A stretch of 64,000 nt of DNA. Source: an uncultured Acidimicrobiaceae bacterium (GTDB lineage: Bacteria; Actinomycetota; Acidimicrobiia; Acidimicrobiales; SZUA-35). A program made the position numbers and the translations under genes. The stretch spans positions 7,615 through 71,614 of the forward strand of contig CAZKEM010000054.1 in NCBI GenBank assembly GCA_964551835.1. The letters run 5' to 3'. Positions 45,848 to 58,412 of the stretch are shown piece after piece. Positions within the stretch are counted from its first letter, which is position 1. Every line of letters begins with the position of its first letter. The notes beneath the pieces were generated by a model, which saw only the letters and a list, made by a program, of their open reading frames with translations, was not told where the DNA came from and did no database searches.

Positions 45848-47731
45848 TCACCAACTTCGACTGCTGCGACCCCCGCCAAAGGACCCGCAGCCGATCCGTT
45901 CGGAGAACCCGACAAAGGAGCTGCCAGCACTCGTAGATGATCTTCCTGACCATCCAGAGCTAGTTGACCAACTACTACCTGACCAGCTCGAACCTCCATC
46001 GATGACAATCCAGGCAGCCTTCCGCCTCCGTCTCGCAATGATTCGCTCCTGGACCGCCATGGCGGCATCTGCGGTTCTCGATGCTGCATCCAGAGCTGCT
46101 GAATGTTCCGAGGGAAGGTTCAGCAGCCTCTGTGCCAGCTGATCCAGAGCTTCGGAGTCCGGGGACTCAACTACCTGCCAACCCATCGAAGCTCTGGTTC
46201 GCTGCAGCGAACGTTGCGCTCTTGCAACCTCGCGAGTTACAGCTCGATCGAGGGCACCCTCTACAGGCTCGCCGTCGGCCTCGATCATTACGTCATCGAT
46301 TTCCCGGTTCAAACGATCTGCGGCTTGCGCAACGCGCAAATAGTTTGGACGAGCGAGCCCTAATTCGTGGTCTAGTTCTGAAATAGTAATAGCTAGCTGG
46401 TCTGAGGTGTCGATCAATTCGGGTGTCAGGTCGTCGGCATGTGTGGCCACAAATGAAGCGAAGGACTCAAAGACCGCCTTCGACTGCTCTATCATTCCGT
46501 GTGATTCGATTCGCGCCCTATCGAGGTCCACTAACAAGTCGTCCATCTGGTCCATTAGATCGTCGGCGACGAGCAGTTCTAAACCAGCAGCCTCCAATGT
46601 CTGTCCTACTTCATCCAGCGTTGAGTCTGGTGACTGTCCGATGGTCACCACCCGAAGTAGTGTCATGGCCGACTCGAGCTGACCCAAAGCACGGTCAGGG
46701 TGCTCGAGTGCCCAAGTGAACGACTCTTCGGAATGGACGTCGGTTACCTCGCCGAGACGTCGCCTAGCTTGGTCGATGCGACCTAACTCTAGATCATAGA
46801 ACGCGTCAAGCTGGTCACGCCACTCCAATAGCGGCCCGGTCTTGTTGGGCCAACTCTGCAGCCTATGGGTTGCCGAGAATAGCGTCGCCTCGAGTTTTTC
46901 TTGCTCATCATGGAGTTCGAAAACATCTACTACAGGCGGATCATCGACCTCAAAGTCTGTGAGGTCCGCCAATAGTCTTACCAGTATTGCTTTCTCGTCG
47001 CTAACATCTAGATCGGCGCTCGCTCTCTCGTCACTAAGTTGGGTGGCTGAAAGAACCTCGTCGAGTAATAGCTCACGCTTGGCGGGGACAGCAACTCGAA
47101 GGTGGCCAATCTTGGCGCCCAGGTTGACCAGCCTGTCGAGGGCAACCCGCTGATCGGCGAGAGACTCTTCCAAAATTGCTAAGAAGCCAGAAGCCTTGTC
47201 GAGTTCATCATCGGATGCGTTGTCGACGCCGTTTGGTGTCGCTCCCGCCAACGACGTGAGATTTTCGCGGATCCGCTGACTGAGTTCGTCTGCTCGACGT
47301 TGATGACTGTCGAGCTCTTGAGCGGTCGTGCCGGTACTAAACTGTTTCCAGGCGTCGACCTGGTTTGTTAACTGTGCGTAGCGCTGTTCGACGACGCGAG
47401 CCCCGGTTTCTGGACCCGAAATATTGGCTGCCAAAGCGGTGCGTTTGACTGTTAGATCTCGACGTCGTCTAAGGACGATTACTGCGCCTGCTCCACCAGC
47501 GGTCGCCAATGCCGCTGTTCCGAGCAATAGGCCTCGACTCCCACGATTGTCTTCACCGACCTTGGTGAGGTCAGCCTGGGCAAGAACCCGCCCTTGTTCG
47601 CTGGTCAAAGATTCGACCCCTTCGAGCATTCCCCCGGAAGCGACCCCAAATGGGAGAACGACAAACCCAACGGTTGCGGCAGCTACAGCTAGCGACCAAC
47701 GGACATTTGGCACGACTGTCTGATTGAACAC
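45848..47731 (-). CDS. Membrane-anchored coiled-coil protein with a Gly/Ser-rich C-terminal tail
   Basis: Signal-like N-terminus, TM followed by RRRR, long helical region, ends GSFGGGRSSRSW like TPM-domain proteins. Confidence 0.7.
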   Translation of the reverse strand: MFNQTVVPNVRWSLAVAAATVGFVVLPFGVASGGMLEGVESLTSEQGRVLAQADLTKVGEDNRGSRGLLLGTAALATAGGAGAVIVLRRRRDLTVKRTALAANISGPETGARVVEQRYAQLTNQVDAWKQFSTGTTAQELDSHQRRADELSQRIRENLTSLAGATPNGVDNASDDELDKASGFLAILEESLADQRVALDRLVNLGAKIGHLRVAVPAKRELLLDEVLSATQLSDERASADLDVSDEKAILVRLLADLTDFEVDDPPVVDVFELHDEQEKLEATLFSATHRLQSWPNKTGPLLEWRDQLDAFYDLELGRIDQARRRLGEVTDVHSEESFTWALEHPDRALGQLESAMTLLRVVTIGQSPDSTLDEVGQTLEAAGLELLVADDLMDQMDDLLVDLDRARIESHGMIEQSKAVFESFASFVATHADDLTPELIDTSDQLAITISELDHELGLARPNYLRVAQAADRLNREIDDVMIEADGEPVEGALDRAVTREVARAQRSLQRTRASMGWQVVESPDSEALDQLAQRLLNLPSEHSAALDAASRTADAAMAVQERIIARRRRKAAWIVIDGGSSWSGSSWSTSSGWSGRSSTSAGSSFVGFSERIGCGSFGGGRSSRSW

Positions 47732-47824: not shown

Positions 47825-48415
47825 TTAGACCGTCTCAGGCGAGAGGGCCGCTTCCAGAAATGACAAAACTGTGGTTCGTAGACGCACCGCGACCCGGGTG
47901 TCGAGGTTTAGGCCGAGTGCACGGAGCGCCTCGGTATCGGAAACCACGGCGGTAATCGCAGCATACGTGGTGAACAAAACCAAGCGACTATCAGATCGTT
48001 TGAAGATACCGGCGTCCATACCTTCATCAAGGTAGTGTATTGCTTCATCTATCAGTGGTTGGAAGACTTCTAAGACTTCGGTCGACCAAGGTTTGCCCAT
48101 ACGGCTAACTTCGCGAAGTAGGCCCATCAGCTCGGGGTTTCTCAGTGCTAGGCCAAACGATGCTCGTACCATTGTCTGGATGCTTGGCCAGCCAGGGGCG
48201 CTGCGGCCACTAGCCGATTGCAGTTCTGTTGTTAAGACCTGAGCTGAGTTTGCGAAAACGGCCGAAACAAGCCCTTGTTTCGATCCGAAGTGGTAGAGGA
48301 CGGTTTGTTTCGTGACACCCATCTGGTTGGCGATCTCCTCCAGAGAGGTGGCGGCGACGCCCTTCTTAGCGAACCCGACGGATGCAGCCGCCATCGCTCT
48401 ATGCTTAGTAGTCAC
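47825..48415 (-). CDS. TetR/AcrR family regulator
   Basis: FAKKGVAATSLEEIA...GVTKQTVLYHFGSK. Confidence 0.93.
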   Translation of the reverse strand: MTTKHRAMAAASVGFAKKGVAATSLEEIANQMGVTKQTVLYHFGSKQGLVSAVFANSAQVLTTELQSASGRSAPGWPSIQTMVRASFGLALRNPELMGLLREVSRMGKPWSTEVLEVFQPLIDEAIHYLDEGMDAGIFKRSDSRLVLFTTYAAITAVVSDTEALRALGLNLDTRVAVRLRTTVLSFLEAALSPETV

Positions 48416-48416
48416 T

Positions 48417-48437
48417 TACCAAATGGTAGAGACCATT
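48417..48437. promoter_or_regulatory. Overlapping palindromes (candidate TetR operator) over the tetR leaderless -10 box
   Basis: TACCA-AA-TGGTA (48417-28) and AATGGT-AGAG-ACCATT (48422-37); minus-strand TACCAT lies 7 nt before the GTG. Confidence 0.55.
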
Positions 48438-48567: not shown

Positions 48568-50904
48568 ATGATCGCCAACAATCTCGCCGGTAAACGTATC
48601 GCCATCACTGGAGCGACCGGCTTCTTAGGCACAGCGTTGGTCGAGCGCCTTGTGCGGTCCGTACCTGACTGTGAGATCGTCCTTCTGATACGGCCTGGCA
48701 AGCGCTCAACGGTAACTCAACGCGCTCGCCGAGAAATTTTCCGCAATGATGCCTTCGACCGCCTCGTCGAGGTACATGGCAAAGAGGGTTTCTTTGCCAT
48801 GATCGACGACCGAGTTACCGTTATCGAAGGCGACATTGGAACCGATGGTCTCAACCTTGACGCCAATGGCCGCGAAGTGTTGGCATCTTGTGACATCGTG
48901 ATCCATTCGGCTGCAACCGTAAGCTTCGACGCAGCCATAAGCACCGCCGTTGAAGTCAACCTGCTAGGCCCAACCCGAGTCGTCGAGACCCTTCAAGACC
49001 TTGACGCGAACCCACACGTCATCGCGGTCTCGACCTGCTATGTTGCCGGCAACCAGCGCGGAACGGCGAACGAAGCACTGTTAACCGATAGCCCATTCCA
49101 CATCGACGTCGATTGGAGATCAGAGGTCAAAGCAGCTCGACGACTCCGGTCAGACTTTGATGCTGAGAGTCGCTCGACAGACCGCCTAGCCGAGTTCGGC
49201 AAGCGAGCCCAGTATGAAATCGGGGCTGCTGGCACTCCCCTATTAGCTGCCAAGACCGAGACGTTGAGACAGCGGTGGGTTTCAGATCAGCTGGTCGAGG
49301 CTGGACGGGCTCGGGCTGCATCGCTTGGGTGGCCTGATGCCTACGCCTATACCAAGGCACTCGGCGAGCGAGCCTTAGCGGAAAGCAAAGCCGACATCGA
49401 CGTCTCGATCGTACGCCCATCGATAATCGAGTCTGCATGGGCAGAGCCGAATCCAGGGTGGATAAAGGGCTTCCGAATGGCCGAACCCATCATCATTTCC
49501 TACGCCCGCGGATTACTGAAAGAGTTCCCCGGCGTGCCCGAAGGCATCGTCGACGTTATTCCCGTTGACATGGTTGTCGCCGCCATCATCGGCGTCGCCG
49601 CTCGAGGCCATGCCGGCGACCACAACATCGACGTCACGCAGGTGGCCTCCGGAACCCGAAACCCGCTCCACTATCGTGACCTTGTCAAGTTAGTCGGAGG
49701 CTGGTTCCAAGAACACCCATTGTACGACGATAAGGGTCAGCCAATTTCGGCACCTGAATGGTCATTTCCTGGCCGTGGTGCCGTCGAGCGTCAGCTCGGC
49801 CGGGTCCACCGCCAACTAGATACTGCTGACAAGGTCATGAAGCGGCTGCCGCTACGAGGCAAACAGGCCAGATTCAACGCCTATGTCGAAAGCCAAAAAG
49901 AAGTCGTCGAGACCGCCATCGGTTACGTGAAGATTTACGGCGCATATGCTGAATGCGAAGCCCTCTATGGGGTTGAAAACCTCATGGAAATGCACGAATC
50001 CCATACCGAAGACGACAAGACGACGTTTTGCTGCGACCCTGGCGTAGTTAACTGGGAAACCTACGTCACCAAAATTCATCTACCGACCGTCGTCGATCAT
50101 GCACGAGCAAAGACCACCAGCCGTCGCACAGACCCAGATGCCCGAACCAAGAGGCTGCGCAAACGAGTGCTCGACCCGGAACGCCAACTGGCGGCCTTTG
50201 ACCTTGAAAACACGCTGATCTCCTCTAATGTGGTTTTCAGCTACTCATGGTTGGCGACCCGTAACCTGTGCGCACGTGAACGAGTAAAATTCGCTGCGAA
50301 CCTCTTACGGGAGGGCCCGAGTTTATTAGCTTTGGACAACCGGGATCGGACCGACTTCCTCCGCCATTTCTATCGCCGGTATGAGGGGGCCTCAGTTCAA
50401 GAACTCGACCGACTCGGGTCTGAACTACTGGCAGACCACATTCTGACCAAGGCGTTTCCAGCTGCCCTTCGACGCGTTCGCAAGCACCGTCAGCTCGGAC
50501 ACCGAACGCTACTGATCACGGGTGCTCTCGATGTAGTCGTCAACCCGCTACGGCCGCTGTTTGACGACATCATTTGTGCTGAGATGACCCAGCGGGACGG
50601 ATATTACACCGGCGAGCTAACCCAAGTCCCCCCAACCGGCGAAGTCCGGGCTCGGGAACTTCAGGATTATGCTGCCACTCATGATCTCGACCTTAACGAG
50701 GCGGTAGCATATGCTGATTCTTCTTCAGATCTACCACTTCTTGACGCCGTCGGATTCCCGGTGGCGGTCAACCCTGAAACACGCCTGACCTCGATGGCGC
50801 TTACACGAGGCTGGTTGATCGAATATTGGGCTAAGTCAGACGGCCGATCTGACCGAACCCTGCCCCTAGGTCCTCTTCCTTCACTACGTCGGAGTCGCAA
50901 GTGA
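48568..50904 (+). CDS. Fatty acyl-CoA reductase (male-sterility SDR) fused to a HAD-IB hydrolase
   Basis: TGATGFLG, IHSAATVSF, YAYTKALGE, RPSII, DVIPVD; C-terminal FDLENTL, LITG, YADSSSDLPLL, AVNP. Confidence 0.88.
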   Translation: MIANNLAGKRIAITGATGFLGTALVERLVRSVPDCEIVLLIRPGKRSTVTQRARREIFRNDAFDRLVEVHGKEGFFAMIDDRVTVIEGDIGTDGLNLDANGREVLASCDIVIHSAATVSFDAAISTAVEVNLLGPTRVVETLQDLDANPHVIAVSTCYVAGNQRGTANEALLTDSPFHIDVDWRSEVKAARRLRSDFDAESRSTDRLAEFGKRAQYEIGAAGTPLLAAKTETLRQRWVSDQLVEAGRARAASLGWPDAYAYTKALGERALAESKADIDVSIVRPSIIESAWAEPNPGWIKGFRMAEPIIISYARGLLKEFPGVPEGIVDVIPVDMVVAAIIGVAARGHAGDHNIDVTQVASGTRNPLHYRDLVKLVGGWFQEHPLYDDKGQPISAPEWSFPGRGAVERQLGRVHRQLDTADKVMKRLPLRGKQARFNAYVESQKEVVETAIGYVKIYGAYAECEALYGVENLMEMHESHTEDDKTTFCCDPGVVNWETYVTKIHLPTVVDHARAKTTSRRTDPDARTKRLRKRVLDPERQLAAFDLENTLISSNVVFSYSWLATRNLCARERVKFAANLLREGPSLLALDNRDRTDFLRHFYRRYEGASVQELDRLGSELLADHILTKAFPAALRRVRKHRQLGHRTLLITGALDVVVNPLRPLFDDIICAEMTQRDGYYTGELTQVPPTGEVRARELQDYAATHDLDLNEAVAYADSSSDLPLLDAVGFPVAVNPETRLTSMALTRGWLIEYWAKSDGRSDRTLPLGPLPSLRRSRK

Positions 50905-52511
50905 GTAAACAACCAACTGCCCCTCGTCCCGGATTCGTCCTCGAGGTGGATAGACAAACTCCCCCAATTCTGTTTCACCATGGAGAGGGTTTCCGCATGG
51001 AAAAACTCCCTGTGGGACGGACCAGGGTGATCTATGCCCCCGAACCACTTCGAGGTTTAGATGACCCGGATGCAGCTATTGTCGATGCGCTGAATAACCC
51101 GATTGAAGACGACCCTTTACCTTCACTACTGAAGCCAGGGATGAAATTGACGATTGCGTTCGACGATGTCTCGCTGCCATTGCCGCCTATGCAACGTCCA
51201 GATGTTCGACAGAGAATAATCGAAGCTGTGCTCGATATGGCGGCCGAAGCTGGAGTTGACGACGTCCACTTGATCGCAGCACTGGCCTTACACCGGAGAA
51301 TGACCGAAGCCGAACTTCGCCACGCGTTAGGTGACCGAATCTATGAGTCGTTCGCTCCAGATGGTCAGCTCTACAATCACGATGCTGAAGACCCAGACGG
51401 AATGGTCATTCTGGGTGAAACGAAACATGGCGAAGCCGTGGAAATGAACAAGCGGGCTGCCGACTCCGACCTCGTCATCTATGTAAACATCAACATTGTG
51501 TCGATGGATGGCGGCTGGAAAAGCACTGCCACAGGGCTATCTGGCTACAAGGGAGTGAGCGCCCACCACAATGTTCACACGATGGAGAAATCCAAGTCGT
51601 TCATGGACCAGAAGAAGTCTGAACTCCACAAATCAAACTGGCGTCAAGGTGAGGTCATTAAGGAGCACGGCCCCCGTATTTTCCAGATCGAAACCACGAT
51701 CAACACCAACTCGTTTGGCGATTCCGGGCCAATGTCGTTCCTCCAAAAACGTGAATGGGAATGGTCGATAAAGGACCGAGCCTCATTTACCGCTATGAAC
51801 ACCGGGCTAAAGGCGATGTCCTCAGCCAGTCGACGCAAGGTGTTCCATTCGTGGAAAGCACCGTATGATATCACCTCTGTCCAAGCGGGCGAAGTTGAAG
51901 CCGTTCACAAGAAGACGACCGAAATGGTCTATAAGCAACATCTCGTTCCCGTCGAAGGCCAGACCGACATTTTGACAATGGGCCTGCCGTATCTGACGCC
52001 GTACAACGTCAACTCGATCATGAACCCTATTTTGGTTATGGTCCAAGGCCTCGGGTACTTCTTCAACTTATACAAAGGAAAACCTCTGGTCCGGGAAGGT
52101 GGCGTGCTCATTATGAGCCACCCAACGCCGTGGGAGTTCCATCCAGTGCATCACCCTTCCTACATCGACTTTTTTGAACAAGTCCTCGCCGATACGACCA
52201 ACCCAGCAGAAATAGAAAAGAAATACGAGCAGCAATTCGCCGAGGACGAGTGGTACCGACACCTCTACCGGACCAGCTACGCATACCACGGCGTTCACCC
52301 GTTCTATATGTGGTACTGGGGTGCGCACGCCATGAAGCACCTCGGTCAAGTCATCATCGTCGGCGGCGACCAACGAGCGGTTCGTCGCCTCGGTTTCAAG
52401 CCTGCTACCACCCTTCAAGATGGTCTAGAAATGGCTGAAGATGTCGTGGGGCCACAGCCTACGATTACTCACTATCACAACCCTCCGATCTTGATGGCTG
52501 ATGTGAAATGA
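50901..52511 (+). CDS. LarA/DUF2088 (lactate racemase superfamily) domain protein
   Basis: ALNNPI, IAFDD, ALALHRRMT, NHDAED, GGWKS; GTGA overlap with the upstream gene. Confidence 0.8.
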   Translation: MSKQPTAPRPGFVLEVDRQTPPILFHHGEGFRMEKLPVGRTRVIYAPEPLRGLDDPDAAIVDALNNPIEDDPLPSLLKPGMKLTIAFDDVSLPLPPMQRPDVRQRIIEAVLDMAAEAGVDDVHLIAALALHRRMTEAELRHALGDRIYESFAPDGQLYNHDAEDPDGMVILGETKHGEAVEMNKRAADSDLVIYVNINIVSMDGGWKSTATGLSGYKGVSAHHNVHTMEKSKSFMDQKKSELHKSNWRQGEVIKEHGPRIFQIETTINTNSFGDSGPMSFLQKREWEWSIKDRASFTAMNTGLKAMSSASRRKVFHSWKAPYDITSVQAGEVEAVHKKTTEMVYKQHLVPVEGQTDILTMGLPYLTPYNVNSIMNPILVMVQGLGYFFNLYKGKPLVREGGVLIMSHPTPWEFHPVHHPSYIDFFEQVLADTTNPAEIEKKYEQQFAEDEWYRHLYRTSYAYHGVHPFYMWYWGAHAMKHLGQVIIVGGDQRAVRRLGFKPATTLQDGLEMAEDVVGPQPTITHYHNPPILMADVK

Positions 52512-53401
52512 GCTGGCTTAAGTTCATTCTCGATAAACCCGCTACCCCCGAAGGGGTTGAGCAGCGAAACGAACAACCAACGACGGGCGTCTACTACGAC
52601 ACTGAGTGGTCGAACGGCAAAGCCGCAAGGTTGGTCCGCGCGGTCAGCGTTTGGGGGTTCATGAAACCCGCGATCGGCCTGTATGGGTCACCAAAGGTAA
52701 TCGGTGCCGACAGGCTGGAAGAAGTCGATGGGCCGGTCGTTTTTGCATCTAATCACCACAGCCACGCCGACACGACGCTGCTGCTGGCAACAATCCCGTC
52801 CCACCTCCGCCAAGATCTAGCCATCGCAGCTGGAGCGGACTATTTCTTTAACAACCGAGTGACTTCGGTTCTTTCAACACTATTCCTGGGAGCGATTCCG
52901 ATCGAACGCACCCGACTTTCCAAGTTGTCCATCAAAAACACCGAATCTGCCCTTGACGCAGGTCGATCGTTGTTGATTTTCCCCGAAGGTGGCAGGAGTA
53001 ACGACGGCTGGGCGGGGGAACACCAGCCCGGAGCTGCGTTCGTCGCCAAGCGCAAAAACGTTCCAATTGTACCGGTTTACATTGACGGCACGGGATCAGT
53101 CCTGCCTAAGGGAAGTAACTGGCCCACCAGGGCCAAATGTGCCGTGGTATTCGGCGCACCGATGACGATTTCGGACGACGAAAACCCGCGAGAGATCGCC
53201 AAGAAGGTAGAGTCCCGGGTCGCCGAACTGGCACATGAGTTTAGTGTCGGCTGGTGGGAAGCTAAGAAGCAGTCATACCGGGACCAGACACCAGACGAAA
53301 AAGGACCTGATGCGGGCGCTTGGAGGCGTAGGTGGGCCCTCGGTCCGAAACCGTCGGAGAAGCGCAACTCCCCTTCGAAACGCCGGTGGCCTAAGGTCTA
53401 G
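52508..53401 (+). CDS. PlsC-type lysophospholipid acyltransferase
   Basis: NHHSHAD, AAGADYFF, IFPEGGRS, VPIVPV; ATGA overlap. Confidence 0.92.
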   Translation: MSWLKFILDKPATPEGVEQRNEQPTTGVYYDTEWSNGKAARLVRAVSVWGFMKPAIGLYGSPKVIGADRLEEVDGPVVFASNHHSHADTTLLLATIPSHLRQDLAIAAGADYFFNNRVTSVLSTLFLGAIPIERTRLSKLSIKNTESALDAGRSLLIFPEGGRSNDGWAGEHQPGAAFVAKRKNVPIVPVYIDGTGSVLPKGSNWPTRAKCAVVFGAPMTISDDENPREIAKKVESRVAELAHEFSVGWWEAKKQSYRDQTPDEKGPDAGAWRRRWALGPKPSEKRNSPSKRRWPKV

Positions 53402-53578: not shown

Positions 53579-53615
53579 AGACCGTGCGTAGACAGACATA
53601 ACAATGGAGAGACAC

Positions 53616-54230
53616 ATGAAGAGTAAAATGCTTGCCCGTTCGATTGGAGCAGCCCTAGCTGTTTCACTTATTGCCAGCGCTTGCGCTGGAGACGAAGAAT
53701 CAGCGGTCACGACAGCCGCTGATACTGGCGACACCACCGGAACCACGACTGGGTTACCAGCAGATACAGAGCCAGAAGCCACCGACACCACGGTTGCCGA
53801 GGCAGAAGTTGGAAACATTGTTGAGGTTGCTCAAGGTAACGATGACTTCTCGATTCTCGTTGAAGCTGTTGTTGCAGCTGACTTGGTTGAGGATCTAAGC
53901 GCTGACGGTGAGCTCACCGTTTTCGCTCCGACCAATGACGCATTCGAAGCATTCCTAACTGAAAATGATACGACCAAAGATGAACTTCTCGCTCGAGAAG
54001 ATCTAGCCGACATCCTCCTGTTCCACGTCTTAGGCGTTGAGGTTGACGGTGCAGCCGCCACCACGGCTGCCGAAGGTGCAGAATCAGTAGCGACTCTTCA
54101 GGGCGGAGAGCTTGCTCTTTCTCTCGACGGTGACGCCATTAAAGTTGGCGAAGCCACGGTCGTAACTGCCGACGATGAAGCTAGCAACGGCGTCATCCAC
54201 GCCATCGACACGGTTCTTATCCCAGCATAG
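53616..54230 (+). CDS. Fasciclin (FAS1) lipoprotein, MPT70/MPT83-like
   Basis: Lipobox IASAC; LTVFAPTNDAF, ILLFHV, ASNGVIHAIDTVLIP; SD GGAGAG before ATG 53616. Confidence 0.93.
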   Translation: MKSKMLARSIGAALAVSLIASACAGDEESAVTTAADTGDTTGTTTGLPADTEPEATDTTVAEAEVGNIVEVAQGNDDFSILVEAVVAADLVEDLSADGELTVFAPTNDAFEAFLTENDTTKDELLAREDLADILLFHVLGVEVDGAAATTAAEGAESVATLQGGELALSLDGDAIKVGEATVVTADDEASNGVIHAIDTVLIPA

Positions 54231-54250
54231 TATCTACGACATAGTAAAGA

Positions 54251-54287
54251 GACGAAGGGCGTATCCGACAAAGATGCGCCCTTCGTC
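54251..54287 (+). terminator. 15-bp stem hairpin after the fasciclin gene
   Basis: GACGAAGGGCGTATC-CGACAAA-GATGCGCCCTTCGTC with one G-U pair. Confidence 0.7.
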
Positions 54288-54312
54288 GCGCCTGGTCTCT
54301 ACTATTGTCCTC

Positions 54313-55098
54313 ATGGGCATTACGGACAGGCAGCCAAGATGGCAGGTAGTTCTAGGAGCGGCAGCTCTAGCTCTTCTCGTTCTGCCCACCATCGCCCTTC
54401 TTACACAAGCTCCCTGGTCCGATGCTCTAGGCTTGGTCACTGATTCCCAGTCGCTACAGGCACTTAGAGTTTCGATTGTTGTCAGTCTGGGCGCTGCGGC
54501 CTTGGCGACCTTGTTTGGGATTCCGTTGGCACTCGTACTTACCCGTACAACGTCGAGGGCAGTCTCATTCTTGCGGACGGCAGTGGTTATACCTCTCATC
54601 CTTCCACCCGTGGCTACCGGGGTCGGACTCTTGGCTGCCTTCGGACGTCTTGGCCTAACCGGTCGTCTCTTTGGGTTTGGCCTCGCCAACACCACCCTCG
54701 GGGCAATTCTTGCCTCCACGGTTGCCGCCATGCCCTTCCTAGTCTTATCGGTCGAAGGTGGACTCCGAGACGTCGACAACGGCTATTGCGACGTGGCGAC
54801 CGGCCTCGGCGCTACTCCGAACCAGAAACTGTGGCATGTCACGCTTCCGCTAGCTCGTCGGTCAATTTTGGCGGGCGTCGTGTTGGCGTGGGCACGGGCC
54901 TTAGGCGAATTCGGAGCGACGATCACGTTCGCAGGAAATATCGAGGGAGTAACCCGAACCCTTCCCCTTCAAATCGCGCTCTCACTCGAACAAGACCGAG
55001 GTCAGGCACTCGTCTTGAGTCTCTTGATGATCTTCATTTCGTTGGTCGTCTTGTTTGCTCTCAGACGAACCTGGTTTCACCCGATCGGGGCGAGTTAG
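54313..55098 (+). CDS. modB: Molybdate ABC transporter permease
   Basis: PLILPPVATG, AMPFLV, WARALGEFGATITFAGNIEG.TRTLP; TACTAT -10 box 7 nt before ATG 54313. Confidence 0.9.
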   Translation: MGITDRQPRWQVVLGAAALALLVLPTIALLTQAPWSDALGLVTDSQSLQALRVSIVVSLGAAALATLFGIPLALVLTRTTSRAVSFLRTAVVIPLILPPVATGVGLLAAFGRLGLTGRLFGFGLANTTLGAILASTVAAMPFLVLSVEGGLRDVDNGYCDVATGLGATPNQKLWHVTLPLARRSILAGVVLAWARALGEFGATITFAGNIEGVTRTLPLQIALSLEQDRGQALVLSLLMIFISLVVLFALRRTWFHPIGAS

Positions 55099-56032: not shown

Positions 56033-56673
56033 CCGTCGGGACCTTCCGCGACAACCACCGATGCTTACGCTCCGAATCTGGACCCCGACGGCAACCCAAT
56101 CGAGGTTGAAGCCACCGACGATAGCCATTACGTCGGCGCCGGGCCAGGTATCGACATCGAAAGGCGACCAACGGTTCTGACTCCGACACCGCCCCAGGCG
56201 AAAACATACAAACCGGCGACCCCGTCACCTGGACTTATGTGGTTGAAAACACTGGCAACACGGCTCTTGCTGACGCCACCATCACCGATGACCATGGGGT
56301 CACCGTCGACCGCGATATCGACGGCGACGGAACCCTTTACGGAACCAACGCAATCCCATTCCTACTACCGGGTGCATCAGTTACCTGCGAAGGTAGCGGA
56401 ACCTCTGTCGGTGGACCGTACACCAACAACGCCACCGTCACCGGTAACCCGATCATGCCCGACTTCGAAACCTGTGGCTGCGACCCCGAAAAACCAGAGA
56501 CCTGGCCCGAGGACCCAACCGCATATGTGGCACTACTCGGCAGCGACGGCGAACCCGTCGACCCGGTCACTGACCAAGACCCGTCAAACTACACCGGGAC
56601 CCAACAGATATCGGGAACCATCCTCGGCGCCACCCTCACTATCACCGGACGCCGCAAACGCCAAACAACTTAG
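56033..56673 (+). pseudogene. Frameshifted remnant of a repeat-domain (DUF11/DUF7507-like) surface protein
   Basis: One frame reads ...IEVEATDDSHYVGAGPGIDI(E); a base is missing at 56159-56161; the next frame reads KATNGSDSDTAPG...VTWTYVVENTGN...YTNNATVTG...DPSNYTG. No signal peptide. Confidence 0.75.
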
Positions 56674-56782
56674 CCAACCGCAACACGCCAAAATGGCGGC
56701 GTTGCATCTCAACATAAAAGGTGGTCGAACGACCAGTTCCACATTCCCAGGCGACGATCGTTTTGACGCTACGCTTGAAAGC

Positions 56783-57967
56783 GTGTCAGAAAAACACTCA
56801 ATGCTCATTCGGTTATCTGGACCTGACAAGCCAGGCATTGCGGCTGCTCTATTCGACCTACTCTCGCATCATGAAGCGACTCTTCAAGACGTTGAACAAA
56901 TTACGATCCGTGGCCATCTCACCCTCGGCGTGGTAGTCGCCGATTGTAAATGGGCTGACATCCAACGAGATCTTTTGATGTTCGGCTACGACCGAGAAAT
57001 CGCGGTCGACTTTGAAGAGGTTTCATCGACATCGACAACTACAAGGCAGGGGCTTGTTGCGACACTCATTGGAAACACTATCGACCCTTCCGAGTTCAGC
57101 GCATTCGCTTCGGTCATAGCAGCCGAAGGGGGCAACATTCGACGGATAGTCCGCCTGGCTCAATACCCGGTTATGGCGTTCGAATTGTTGATTTCTGGTG
57201 CTGATACAGAAAAGATGCGGTTGGCTAGCCTGCAGCTTGGTCAAGATATGCGCTGCGACGTCGCTGTCCACCACCGCGGAATCGGTCGAAGAGCGGCCCG
57301 TTTGGTCGTTCTCGATGTAGATTCAACCCTAATCCAGGACGAAGCGGTCGAGTTACTCGCTAAAGAGGCGGACTGCCTCGAGCAAGTTAAGAAAATCACC
57401 GACCAGGCAATGGCTGGCGAGCTCGACTTTGCAGAGTCGTTGGAGGCTCGTGTCGCCCTTCTCGCTGGGCTCGAGGCCGAAGCCCTCGACAGAGTCAAGT
57501 ATCAGATCACGCTGACTCGAGGAGCTCGCACCTTTATGCGCACGCTGCGACGTCTCGGCTATCGAACCGGTATTGTCTCTGGTGGCTTTACGTGCATTAC
57601 CGATCACCTAAGCGGCGAGCTGTCGATTGACCATTCGTTAGCTAACACCCTTGAGGTCGTCGACGGTAAACTTACTGGCAGAATCAGCGGTGAGATTGTC
57701 GATCGAGCGAGGAAGGCTCAGTTCGTCCGAGAAATATCTGCCGCCGAAAAGATCCCTCTGGATCAGGTCGTTGCCATCGGCGACGGAGCCAACGACCTGG
57801 ACATGCTAAATGTGGCTGGTCTCGGCATTGCATTCAATGCTAAACCAGTCGTTCGCAAGGCTGCCGACACCACGGTCAACGTACCGTACCTTGATGCCGT
57901 CCTGTTTGTTCTCGGGGTTAGTCGCGACGATATCGAAGATGCTGACACTAAGAATTCCGAGGCTTAG
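56783..57967 (+). CDS. serB: Phosphoserine phosphatase with two ACT domains
   Basis: SGPDKPG, LDVDSTLIQDE, AMAGELDF, VSGGF, GDGANDL, AFNAKP; TACGCT -10 box 7 nt before GTG 56783. Confidence 0.96.
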   Translation: MSEKHSMLIRLSGPDKPGIAAALFDLLSHHEATLQDVEQITIRGHLTLGVVVADCKWADIQRDLLMFGYDREIAVDFEEVSSTSTTTRQGLVATLIGNTIDPSEFSAFASVIAAEGGNIRRIVRLAQYPVMAFELLISGADTEKMRLASLQLGQDMRCDVAVHHRGIGRRAARLVVLDVDSTLIQDEAVELLAKEADCLEQVKKITDQAMAGELDFAESLEARVALLAGLEAEALDRVKYQITLTRGARTFMRTLRRLGYRTGIVSGGFTCITDHLSGELSIDHSLANTLEVVDGKLTGRISGEIVDRARKAQFVREISAAEKIPLDQVVAIGDGANDLDMLNVAGLGIAFNAKPVVRKAADTTVNVPYLDAVLFVLGVSRDDIEDADTKNSEA

Positions 57968-57983: not shown

Positions 57984-58412
57984 CTAATCTACGGCCGTTA
58001 AGGCAACGTCGTCGGTCGTCAACCGCGATAATGCGTCGGTGAACCACCGGGGACTTCGGGTAGGTTTACCGGCCTTGTTAACCGTTACCCCGACTACCAC
58101 CGCCGTAGTGATAACCTTCTCGCCGCAAAGGATACGTTGGGACCATTGGGTGGTAGCCCGACGATTCTGGGTGCCTTCAGACGTTTCAACTATCAGCCGG
58201 TCACCGGCAGAGGCAGGTGCCTTATAGTTCACTTCTATTGATGTAATAAACACTCGGATACCGCGTTCGCTGAGCGACTCCAGCGGCACCCCACACCATT
58301 GAAGGGCTTCTGCGCGACCAACCTCGAAATAGGTTACGTAGCTGGCGTGGTTAACGTGGTTGTTAGGGTCGAGTTCATTGAAGCGAACGTTGACGATGCA
58401 TCGATGAGCCAT
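57984..58412 (-). CDS. 4HBT-like acyl-CoA thioesterase
   Basis: VRFNELDPNNHVNHASYVTYFEVGR. Confidence 0.92.
   Translation of the reverse strand: MAHRCIVNVRFNELDPNNHVNHASYVTYFEVGRAEALQWCGVPLESLSERGIRVFITSIEVNYKAPASAGDRLIVETSEGTQNRRATTQWSQRILCGEKVITTAVVVGVTVNKAGKPTRSPRWFTDALSRLTTDDVALTAVD

Follow-up and report, generated by a model that had tools for sequence, protein, structure and literature searches.

The closest described system is the elbA-elbE cluster of Myxococcus xanthus (Lorenzen et al. 2014, via PMC9131029). In the available sections of PMC9131029, elbD was required for alkyl and vinyl ether lipids and its mutants lost the ether lipids, elbC coded for a protein whose function was not known, and what elbB insertions did in M. 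xanthus was attributed to polarity. The formation of the alkyl ether bond via elb genes in aerobic bacteria has been open since 2014, and the accessible parts of the literature still describe ether-bond formation by the cluster as not conclusively shown. Bacterial 1-alkyl glycerol monoethers are also produced by Ger, a modified PlsA found in Thermotoga maritima (PMC13159169, available sections), but Ger belongs to an enzyme family unrelated to those described below and is active only anaerobically. For the LarA superfamily, the characterised enzymes in the accessible literature were all racemases or epimerases, LarA groups 14-16 have been without a substrate since 2020 (PMC7583248, available sections), and groups 14 and 15 lacked an equivalent of His174 (PMC12611868, available sections).

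The window (the whole 64-kb stretch of DNA that was analysed) contained three ORFs on the plus strand, at 48568-50904 (gene 1, 778 aa), 50901-52511 (gene 2, 536 aa), and 52508-53401 (gene 3, 297 aa). Genes 1 and 2 overlapped by 4 nt (GTGA, 50901-50904), as did genes 2 and 3 (ATGA, 52508-52511). The ORFs, overlaps, and family matches confirmed the preliminary description of three coupled genes for a reductase-HAD-IB protein, a LarA-superfamily protein, and a PlsC-type acyltransferase. The features of the locus were as follows:

47825..48415, minus strand, TetR-family regulator, divergent from the operon (TetR_N 46.9 bits; alternative start ATG at 48394)
48417..48428, no strand, palindrome of two 5-base arms and a 2-base spacer, putative TetR operator (conserved pattern)
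48568..50127, plus strand, reductase domain of gene 1, ElbD-type fatty-acyl reductase, residues 1-520 (NAD_binding_4, PDB 7eoz)
50188..50784, plus strand, HAD-IB hydrolase domain of gene 1, residues 541-739, ElbB counterpart (TIGR01490 112.9 bits, cut-off 98.3)
50901..52511, plus strand, gene 2, LarA homologue of the LarAH14/15/16 family, ElbC counterpart by position (NF052592, Lar_N)
52508..53401, plus strand, gene 3, PlsC/AGPAT-type acyltransferase with a conserved C-terminal extension (PF01553 75.2 bits)

The reading considered probable, at moderate confidence, was that of a TetR-controlled elb-type operon making 1-O-alkyl-glycerol (ether) lipids, for which we infer both the product and the role of the LarA homologue.

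Gene 1 matched NAD_binding_4 over residues 13-340 (190 bits) and the Sterile domain weakly (22.8 bits, under the cut-off of 35.4). Its reductase domain matched the fatty acyl-CoA reductase PDB 7eoz (E 2.4e-59) and carried the Rossmann motif GATGFLG and the active-site motif YAYTK. Against ElbD-type proteins, 97-98% of the 520 residues aligned, with E down to 2e-83. NAD_binding_4, AMP-binding, and Acyltransferase occurred together in 114 of the 120 longer relatives listed, most of the 114 showing 26-36% identity over 96-100% of the region. In ElbD-type loci, HAD genes standing alone upstream of the LarA homologue were 31-39% identical to the HAD-IB domain, in which motifs II-IV were present and motif I read D-x-E-x-T (D-x-[DE]-G-T across the family). 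This motif I has Glu where a second Asp is usual (DxDxT), an observation that counts against the preferred reading. Two proteins (P0014 and P0051) considered as reductase-HAD-dehydrogenase(-LarA) fusions were rejected; their domain matches were partial, P0014 ended inside Lar_N, and both were taken as read-through gene calls.

Gene 3 contained the acyltransferase motifs NHHSHAD (HX4D) and FPEGGRS (FPEGTRS-type), and PDB 5kym (PlsC) matched it at E 1e-8. It had the NHxSHxD motif in common with the acyltransferase domain of ElbD, was 28-38% identical to that domain in ElbD-type proteins, and ended in an extension (residues 243-284) that was kept in stand-alone actinobacterial copies. TIGR00530 gave 51.1 bits against a cut-off of 102.95, and gene 3 is therefore not a housekeeping PlsC equivalog. 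The products of genes 1 and 3 had no AMP-binding or PP-binding domain, so the multidomain chain of ElbD was not found in them.

Among 12 ElbD-type metagenome loci, a LarA homologue (43-52% identical) lay directly upstream of elbD in nine, and seven of these had a HAD-IB gene upstream of the LarA homologue, which matches the order elbB-elbC-elbD. The HAD-IB and DUF2088 genes that the preliminary description had placed beside elbD were thus found there. One such locus (L128) read TetR, HAD, Lar_N, and a protein with NAD_binding_4, Sterile, AMP-binding, PP-binding, and Acyltransferase. The eight complete LarA copies from ElbD loci scored 460-540 bits, and on one ElbD-type contig the LarA homologue was 93% identical to a Myxococcales MAG protein. 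NF052592 gave 764-850 bits on five cluster-linked LarA homologues, including those of cultured Anaeromyxobacter and Polyangium, and all passed its cut-off of 740, while two unlinked paralogues (442 and 525 bits) fell below it. In the phylogenetic tree, cluster-linked LarA copies formed one clade (100/100), within which the actinobacterial copies (97/98) and the ElbD-linked copies (100/98) each grouped as a clade of their own.

Sequence comparison showed homology for all four catalytic modules: the reductase and acyltransferase with ElbD, the HAD-IB domain with ElbB, and the LarA homologue with the gene in the ElbC position. Homology to elb genes, proposed earlier, was accordingly present in the reductase, acyltransferase, HAD, and LarA modules alike. 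The M. xanthus cluster has the same kinds of module, the ElbC position being read from the ElbD-type metagenome loci; these loci comprise HAD, LarA homologue, and reductase plus acyltransferase, and the LarA homologues on both sides share an NCBIfam family and a clade. The operon differs from elb in having no adenylation or carrier domain and in its reductase being fused to HAD, whereas in elb it is fused to the acyltransferase. An ElbA/ElbE-type NAD-dependent epimerase/dehydratase was absent from the nine flanking genes scanned; in its place, related operons have an MDR dehydrogenase, unlinked in this genome, which may take the ElbA/ElbE role. The assignment as a compact, split elb-type operon typical of Actinomycetota holds by homology.

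The same parts could serve another product. In other bacteria, wax-ester synthesis draws on reductases of this family, and the operon might make non-ether fatty-alcohol lipids (wax esters, alkyl phosphates, or long-chain diol lipids), its link to elb being one of shared parts only. For isolated ElbD, moreover, neither fatty alcohol nor acyltransferase activity was demonstrable according to the available sections of PMC9131029. However, the operon and the elb clusters have four modules in common with their order kept, and the elbD mutants of M. xanthus lost ether lipids (PMC9131029, available sections). No WS/DGAT gene was found in the 91% complete genome, a result of little or no weight as the control search matched no genome. 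A non-ether product was considered very unlikely. Two further reports bear on ElbD itself: a sponge preprint gave gene-cluster families with elbD and elbB homologues only, and in the available sections of PMC11868695 Pontiella strains with ElbD homologues had no ether lipids; both reports count against the preferred elb-type ether-lipid reading.

The product of gene 2 matched Lar_N (133.7 bits) and, over profile positions 1-520, NF052592 (883.8 bits, cut-off 740). Residues D89, H131, K207, and H223 were invariant in 27 of 27 sequences and aligned with D72, H108, K184, and H200 of LarA. In the NPN site these four serve, respectively, to contact the ribose, as the first catalytic His, for the covalent link, and to hold nickel. 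The position of the second catalytic His (LarA H174), a defining residue of the racemases, was occupied by an invariant Asn198. Where LarA has Arg75, a ligand of both the cofactor phosphate and the substrate carboxylate, gene 2 has Leu, and this counts against the preferred reading. Five further histidines of the C-terminal domain were invariant (H336, H407, H418, H463, and H466). The AlphaFold model had a pLDDT of 92.9, with 9q3k as its best fold match (target-normalised TM-score 0.86). LarA_Sp (PDB 9q2u/9q3k) and LarA_Bw (9q3j), described in PMC12611868 (available sections), came closest in both sequence (E 2e-42) and fold (target-normalised TM-score 0.86 and 0.85). Like gene 2, both are about 500 residues long, carry Asn where the second catalytic His would be, and retain the NPN-site Lys, His, and Asp. 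They are only 21-25% identical to gene 2, however, and stand amid sugar-metabolism genes with carbohydrates as proposed substrates, whereas gene 2 stands amid lipid genes. Lactiplantibacillus plantarum LarA (PDB 5huq) has the N-terminal cofactor domain in common with gene 2, with the equivalents of D72, H108, K184, and H200 kept, but gene 2 has Asn for H174 and Leu for R75, and the C-terminal substrate domain was unalignable by sequence; the fold comparison gave a target-normalised TM-score of 0.78 at 17% identity. The gene 2 product is probably a nickel-pincer (NPN) enzyme, and the match of a LarA-like gene to the functionally uncharacterised elb gene points to a nickel-cofactor enzyme in ether-lipid synthesis.

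The genome contained a single Lar_N gene, gene 2, and a larE-larB-larC operon on another contig (C33), with all three genes above their cut-offs. By its gene content, the genome is predicted to be able to make the nickel-pincer cofactor, with gene 2 as the sole LarA-family client. Across the phylum, the LarA marker (NF052592) was above cut-off in 73 of 301 sampled genomes, and LarC was present in 67 of the 73 carriers. The remaining six carriers all belonged to one family and were 92-98% complete; in five of them a second test yielded neither LarC at E <= 0.01 nor LarB above 26 bits, and the LarA homologue of the LarC-less carriers still retained the cofactor residues. These carriers count against the preferred reading. 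Within the order of this genome, the LarA homologue and LarC were both present in 11 genomes and both absent in 3, with 0 discordant. In two of 13 phylum-level loci (L107 and L122), larE-larB-larC directly followed the acyltransferase gene.

The known chemistry of the superfamily allows a different role for gene 2 in a pathway that still makes ether lipids. The LarA homologue might act as an epimerase or isomerase on a backbone or head-group precursor (e.g. C2 inversion of a glycerol phosphate derivative or a hydroxy acid), with the ether arising through reductase/acyltransferase chemistry or the MDR dehydrogenase. The uniform racemase or epimerase activity of characterised LarA enzymes and the NCBIfam name of the NF052592 family, hydroxyacid isomerase, agree with this, any of the five C-terminal histidines listed above could give a second base, and three of the 12 ElbD-type loci had no LarA homologue near elbD (L124 and L135, with 10 kb upstream each, and L127, with 1.7 kb), which also weighs against the preferred reading. 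The invariant Asn at the His174 position and the loss of the carboxylate-binding Arg75, on the other hand, argue against an epimerase or isomerase, and neither cluster type encodes another candidate for forming the ether. None of the seven hydroxy-acid assays showed activity for the LarAH14 member from Frankia (PMC7583248, available sections). An epimerase or isomerase role was judged unlikely.

In the preferred pathway to 1-O-alkyl-glycerol lipids, the reductase would convert acyl-CoA or acyl-ACP to a fatty alcohol, and the acyltransferase would place an acyl group onto sn-1 of glycerol-3-phosphate or dihydroxyacetone phosphate. The LarA homologue, with NPN and His131 as a single base, would remove a hydride from the glycerol backbone at its C2 hydroxyl or use the keto form directly; the bound acyl-DHAP would then exchange its acyl group for the fatty alcohol in the manner of an alkyl-DHAP synthase, and the hydride would go back to the same face. 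Because of this proposed return to the same face, the second histidine would be dispensable. Supply of the keto intermediate, or its reduction, may fall to the unlinked MDR dehydrogenase, and the HAD domain would dephosphorylate the alkyl(acyl)glycerol phosphate. The peroxisomal route (FAR1, GNPAT, AGPS, acyl/alkyl-DHAP reductase) and the MXAN_1676 operon of M. xanthus have an alcohol-forming reductase and an sn-1 acyltransferase, the activities also predicted for this operon, and follow a logic like the one proposed here, in which acyl is exchanged for alcohol on a keto-glycerol backbone. Unlike the peroxisomal route, the operon has no homologue of the flavin-dependent AGPS, in whose place the LarA homologue is proposed.

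The acyltransferase probably docks on the LarA homologue. The docking model of this pair scored 0.66, against 0.00 for the best of three controls, and its runs agreed in at least 84% of contacts with a partner pLDDT of at least 68. Of 80 solved complexes, 58 attained this mark, against 2 of 110 mismatched pairs; as our own alignments were used for the pair, these rates apply approximately. The model supports predicted binding of the two proteins to each other. A bolder proposal, put forward tentatively as a possibility, is that ElbC (LarAH14/15/16) supplies the ether-bond-forming activity still missing from the aerobic bacterial pathway. In complex with the acyltransferase, this nickel-pincer enzyme would borrow the C2 hydride from 1-acyl-glycerol-3-phosphate (or capture the acyl-DHAP enolate), swap acyl for fatty alcohol, and return the hydride. 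If true, the LarA superfamily would gain its first non-racemase reaction, and some bacterial membrane lipids would be nickel-dependent. The orphan LarAH14-16 group and the proteins in the ElbC position being the same, one concrete experiment would serve both fields. The literature searched had no paper pairing 'ether lipid' with 'DUF2088' or 'lactate racemase'; supplementary tables on the neighbours of LarA groups 14-16 may list lipid genes.

Of the 69 Acidimicrobiales loci with the reductase start present, 51 had a homologous divergent TetR gene no more than 400 bp away, and a TetR homologue flanked 7 of 13 phylum-level loci. The TetR beside ElbD-type loci (as in L128) showed no similarity to that of the window at E 1e-3, and TetR therefore lies outside the shared elb core. 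The palindrome sits within an invariant 18-base block (48413-48430), which was unchanged in 8 aligned loci with surroundings only 43% identical. Its pattern occurred once in the 64-kb window (0.01 expected); of the 51 loci with an adjacent TetR, 47 had it upstream of the reductase gene at a distance of at most 300 bp. The palindrome is the probable TetR operator. It was detected by alignment and pattern search, the repeat finder (seed 6) having returned nothing in the intergenic region. A consensus scan for promoters and terminators gave fewer sites than shuffles and no useful site.

TetR-gated operons are often catabolic, and the genes downstream here coded for a fasciclin-domain protein and an ABC permease. 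These features would suit an operon for the uptake or recycling of alkylglycerols, lysolipids, or fatty alcohols, with TetR sensing the substrate. The downstream genes were not conserved with the operon, however (a fasciclin match in 1 of 80 Acidimicrobiales loci), the reductase and acyltransferase run biosynthetically in the elb pathway, and family matches of the operon and flanking genes revealed no oxygenase or lipase in the cluster. A catabolic or remodelling function was rated extremely unlikely.

The cluster co-occurrence survey that had been suggested for the locus was run on loci found via the LarA homologue. Reductase, HAD, LarA homologue, and acyltransferase stood in the same order in 75 of 80 Acidimicrobiales loci, the other 5 being cut on the missing side by a contig end, and other families of the phylum gave 13 orthologous loci, 11 of which had the four genes in line. 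Because the order was kept at both levels, the arrangement is not due to chance. One gene (L083) considered as interrupted by a stop was found intact, the stop codon lying upstream of its start. The cluster included a Zn-dependent MDR dehydrogenase in all 13 phylum loci and in 40 of the 80 Acidimicrobiales loci, and the orthologue in this genome was on another contig. Judged by this distribution, the ancestral actinobacterial operon included the dehydrogenase. The preliminary elb-like interpretation was supported, but its 'minimal' needs correction, the ancestral operon having also had the MDR dehydrogenase.

Sinninghe Damste et al. (2023, Syst Appl Microbiol 46:126404) reportedly found that five Rubrobacter species, members of the same phylum, were dominated by mixed ether/ester lipids and shared a putative 1-O-alkyl glycerol phosphate operon said to resemble elb. 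That Rubrobacterales study may already describe the actinobacterial operon; a literature search for a description of it found nothing useful. Accessible parts of the literature on Acidimicrobiia and ether lipids listed the class among abundant taxa. Surveys look for producers by ElbD or antiSMASH rules, by which a split form without an adenylation domain may be missed, and carriers could be overlooked producers of the monoalkyl glycerol ethers that serve as environmental markers. Cultured carriers include Aquihabitans and Salinilacustrithrix strains. No RNA runs containing the operon were listed, the only listed runs being two DNA runs from one marine metagenome sample, from which this DNA may have come. 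The complete operon was also present in records of marine Acidimicrobiales and of sponge-associated 'Candidatus Poriferisocius' (L048 and L052).

Three forward-strand open reading frames make up the operon, and a divergent TetR gene lies upstream of it:

47825-48415, divergent, TetR gene upstream of the operon
48417-48428, palindrome of two 5-base arms with a 2-base spacer, the core of an 18-base block adjoining the TetR start
48568-50904, +, gene 1, ORF of 778 aa, reductase-HAD fusion
50901-52511, +, gene 2, ORF of 536 aa, LarA homologue
52508-53401, +, gene 3, ORF of 297 aa, PlsC-type acyltransferase

At both junctions (GTGA between genes 1 and 2, ATGA between genes 2 and 3) the start codon overlaps the preceding stop. 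The ORFs, overlaps and family matches agree with the preliminary description, which had correctly described three overlapping genes. Gene 1 contained NAD_binding_4 at residues 13-340, a weak Sterile match and a HAD-IB domain at residues 541-739 (TIGR01490, above cut-off). Its reductase matched the solved fatty acyl-CoA reductase 7eoz at an E-value of 2.4e-59 and is the sole full-length member of its family in the window's genome. Gene 2 contained Lar_N and matched the NCBIfam family NF052592, entitled 'NPN-dependent hydroxyacid isomerase, LarAH14/15/16 family' (NPN, nickel-pincer cofactor), at 883.8 bits (cut-off 740), and gene 3 matched PF01553. The G+C content was even along the window (0.53-0.57).

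The 18-base block was invariant in 8 aligned loci, in surroundings that were only 43% identical, and the palindrome pattern occurred once in the window, with 0.01 occurrences expected. A divergent TetR gene was found within 400 bp in 51 of the 69 Acidimicrobiales loci that have the reductase start, and in 47 of these 51 the pattern lay no more than 300 bp upstream of the reductase gene. The palindrome is read as the TetR operator, at which the regulator would bind.

A search with the LarA homologue, in one genome per species, confirmed 588 relatives; the best 80 of the 588 were retained, nearly all of them labelled Acidimicrobiales or close kin. Carriers in culture include Aquihabitans sp. and Salinilacustrithrix flava. 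The order reductase, HAD, LarA homologue, acyltransferase was kept in 75 of these best 80 loci, and in the remaining 5 (L029, L032, L041, L088 and L101) a contig end cuts the missing side. The NF052592 cut-off was exceeded in the genomes of 29 of 41 relatives and in 73 of the 301 genomes of a phylum-wide sample; the phylum tally takes in the genomes G121, G127, G187, G213 and G265, flagged as unpublished. Twenty regions were taken from the phylum sample, and a tblastn score above 570 bits defined the true orthologues (n=13); all four genes stood in line in 11 of these loci, and in the other loci, L112 and L113 (family f36), the cluster was loosened and the acyltransferase was not found nearby. 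The 7 paralogue loci of lower score (L114-L120) had neither a reductase nor an acyltransferase as neighbour. The loci examined include none from the unpublished-flagged genomes. The operon is a real and widely conserved feature. Another group of LarA homologues, of about 465-600 aa, is common in the phylum (L114-L120 and numerous sites in the phylum sample); its members scored 140-540 bits on NF052592, below the cut-off, and stand without lipid-gene neighbours.

A review covering the ether-lipid (elb) genes of Myxococcus xanthus gives elbA and elbE as NAD-dependent epimerase/dehydratase genes, elbB as a HAD-like gene, elbC as a gene of unknown function and elbD as a gene with reductase, acyl-CoA synthetase, carrier and acyltransferase domains, whose mutants lost alkyl and vinyl ether lipids (PMC9131029). 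With residues 1-520 of gene 1 as the query, 7996 candidate proteins of 1363-3890 residues were scored and 141 were obtained at E <= 1e-5. NAD_binding_4, AMP-binding and Acyltransferase domains occurred together in 114 of the 120 listed among these 141 long relatives, whose sources include Acidobacteriota, Pyrinomonadaceae, Myxococcota, Gemmatimonadota and Binataceae. Two single-contig gene calls joining reductase, HAD and dehydrogenase, P0014 (1460 aa, also with Lar_N) and P0051 (1542 aa), were set aside, since their domain matches are partial and they are probably read-through calls across overlapping genes.

An alignment of 12 ElbD-type proteins (with reductase, adenylation, carrier and acyltransferase domains) was used to scan metagenome contigs, and 80 loci were returned, 12 of which contained the N-terminus of the ElbD-type gene. 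Directly upstream of it, 9 of the 12 loci (L123, L125, L128-L132, L137 and L161) had a gene 2 homologue of 43-52% identity, with eight complete copies matching over the full length at 460-540 bits, and 7 of these 9 had a HAD-IB homologue further upstream. Neither a LarA homologue nor a HAD-IB gene was found in the 10 kb of upstream DNA of L124 and L135, and L127 has only 1.7 kb upstream. In L128 the order was TetR, HAD, Lar_N and then a protein of NAD_binding_4, Sterile, AMP-binding, PP-binding and Acyltransferase domains. The statement in the preliminary description that HAD-IB and DUF2088 genes flank elbD was thus borne out in the ElbD-type loci, with the LarA homologue in 9 of 12. The LarA homologue of L130 shared 93% identity with a Myxococcales MAG protein; proteins of cultured Anaeromyxobacter and Polyangium species were 55-57% identical. 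All five ElbD-linked or myxobacterial LarA copies tested passed NF052592 (764-850 bits); two unlinked actinobacterial paralogues scored 442 and 525 bits, below the cut-off.

A phylogenetic tree of 40 rows was built from the window's copy, 20 actinobacterial copies chosen to represent the range of loci, 8 ElbD-linked copies (all 9 except the partial one of L125), 6 paralogues (all 7 except L117, which was too weak) and 5 named proteins. All cluster-linked LarA copies fell in one clade (support 100/100) with two branches, one actinobacterial (97/98) and one ElbD-linked (100/98). In gene 3, the motif NHHSHAD fits NHxSHxD, a pattern that all 12 aligned ElbD-type proteins have in their acyltransferase domain; a C-terminal extension is common to the stand-alone actinobacterial acyltransferases and absent from the ElbD-fused domains. 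These sequence comparisons support an elb reading of the operon at the level of homology.

In many loci the HAD domain and the LarA homologue are 1.2-1.9 kb apart, and between them lies the gene of an MDR dehydrogenase, Zn-dependent and composed of ADH_N and ADH_zinc_N domains. Of the 80 Acidimicrobiales loci (best 80 of 588), 40 carry this dehydrogenase within the cluster, as do all 13 phylum-level loci. The orthologue of the window's own genome, 46-56% identical to the in-cluster Acidimicrobiales copies, is on a separate contig (G000:C3:15175-16329, fetched as locus L204, 6170-7333), where it stands alone, adjoining genes unrelated to the operon. The window thus holds a reduced form of a four-enzyme operon. 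The nearest solved relatives of the dehydrogenase were ketose reductase and sorbitol dehydrogenases, and none of the equivalog models fits it. Its neighbours in L204 are QueG-like and QueF-like genes, an EgtD-like methyltransferase gene, an EgtB-like gene (DinB_2 and FGE-sulfatase) and a GT4 glycosyltransferase gene.

In an alignment of 27 members of the LarA homologue's family, D88, D89, H131, N196, N198, K207, H222 and H223 were invariant, as were several C-terminal histidines. A profile comparison with solved LarA sequences placed D89 at D72, H131 at H108, K207 at K184 and H223 at H200, with N198 at the position of H174 and L92 at that of R75. The His174 equivalent is said to be missing from groups 14 and 15 (PMC12611868).

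The window's genome has one Lar_N gene, and larE, larB and larC lie in a row on its contig C33, all above their cut-offs. Among the sampled genomes of its order, 11 had both the LarA homologue and LarC, 3 had neither and none was discordant. In L107 (4781-6986, -) and L122 (10727-12998, +), larE-larB-larC directly follows the acyltransferase gene; the cofactor genes of this family are contiguous with the lipid operon. LarC was not found in 6 of the 73 carriers across the phylum (G054, G113, G155, G222, G261 and G326), all of one family, and a repeated test of five of these detected neither LarC (E <= 0.01) nor LarB (above 26 bits). Of the six, G054 carries the entire cluster at locus L121, with every cofactor-site residue in place. 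These LarC-less carriers count against the cofactor-supply argument. The LarC tally takes in the unpublished-flagged genomes G041, G058, G088, G121, G127, G159, G187, G265 and G278; G127, G187 and G265 are among the 73 carriers, and without these 64 of 70 carriers have LarC. A control with Corynebacterium glutamicum gave matches for LarC, LarB and LarE and none for Lar_N, yet a 2020 paper lists LarAH19/GntE1 from this species (PMC7583248); either the strains are not the same or some members escape a whole-genome Lar_N search.

The operon shows homology to the elb core, with a conserved probable operator, an intact cofactor site and a cofactor-competent genome. From the enzyme families, the reductase would form a fatty alcohol, the acyltransferase would acylate sn-1 of G3P or DHAP, and the HAD domain would remove a phosphate. 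The boldest proposal is an acyl-for-alkyl exchange by the LarA homologue, the job of alkyl-DHAP synthase in eukaryotes, in which NPN might either hold the hydride while C2 is a ketone or act as an electrophile for an enolate. The invariant Asn in place of the second histidine would agree with a single base and a return of the hydride to the same face, and the MDR dehydrogenase, like ElbA and ElbE, may produce or reduce the keto form. In the main rival reading, the LarA homologue would be an epimerase or isomerase acting on another intermediate. The confident AlphaFold model of the LarA homologue (pLDDT 92.9) was closest to the two single-histidine LarA-like structures 9q3k (TM-score 0.86) and 9q3j (0.85), normalised to the target, for which carbohydrate substrates were proposed and lactate racemisation was not found (PMC12611868); its C-terminal substrate domain gave no alignment with lactate racemase. 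A Frankia LarAH14 was inactive in seven assays (PMC7583248). Co-expression systems for obtaining NPN-loaded protein are described in PMC11796402.

Complex prediction for the LarA homologue and the acyltransferase scored 0.66, and the best of 3 controls scored 0.00; 58 of 80 solved complexes and 2 of 110 mismatched pairs attain this mark, counts that are only a rough calibration because own alignments were used. The runs agreed in at least 84% of contacts, with a partner pLDDT of at least 68. In the predicted interface, the LarA homologue contributes residues 99-100, 111-120 and 144-151 and the acyltransferase residues 65-71 and 248-258, the latter stretch lying within the C-terminal extension. 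The acyltransferase tail has a conserved aromatic pair at residues 249-250. Structure-sequence searches found LarA and PlsC structures as separate entries only, and we know of no solved LarA-PlsC complex, so that a score drawn from model memory seems unlikely. The prediction supports binding between the two proteins and does not show it.

A literature search returned no paper pairing 'ether lipid' with 'DUF2088' or with 'lactate racemase', and the ether-lipid literature surveyed uses ElbD as a marker and does not discuss elbC. A 2023 paper on Rubrobacterales reportedly describes 1-O-alkyl glycerol lipids in abundance and a putative elb-like operon; it may already describe the window's operon type, in the same phylum.

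Other features were observed beside the operon. A 627-aa ORF (45848-47731, -) between ddl and the TetR gene had no Pfam match, and its tblastn matches (33-37% identity) were confined to positions next to the operon in the four nearest relatives (L023, L024, L025 and L091). A 576-aa SerB-like protein (56237-57967, +) with two ACT domains, a HAD domain and about 185 extra N-terminal residues is encoded convergently with an adjoining 4HBT-type thioesterase (57984-58412, -), and neither gene is conserved with the operon. A fasciclin-domain ORF (53604-54230, +) overlaps the start of an ABC-permease ORF (54175-55098, +) by 56 bases, and the start of one of the two was probably called too early.
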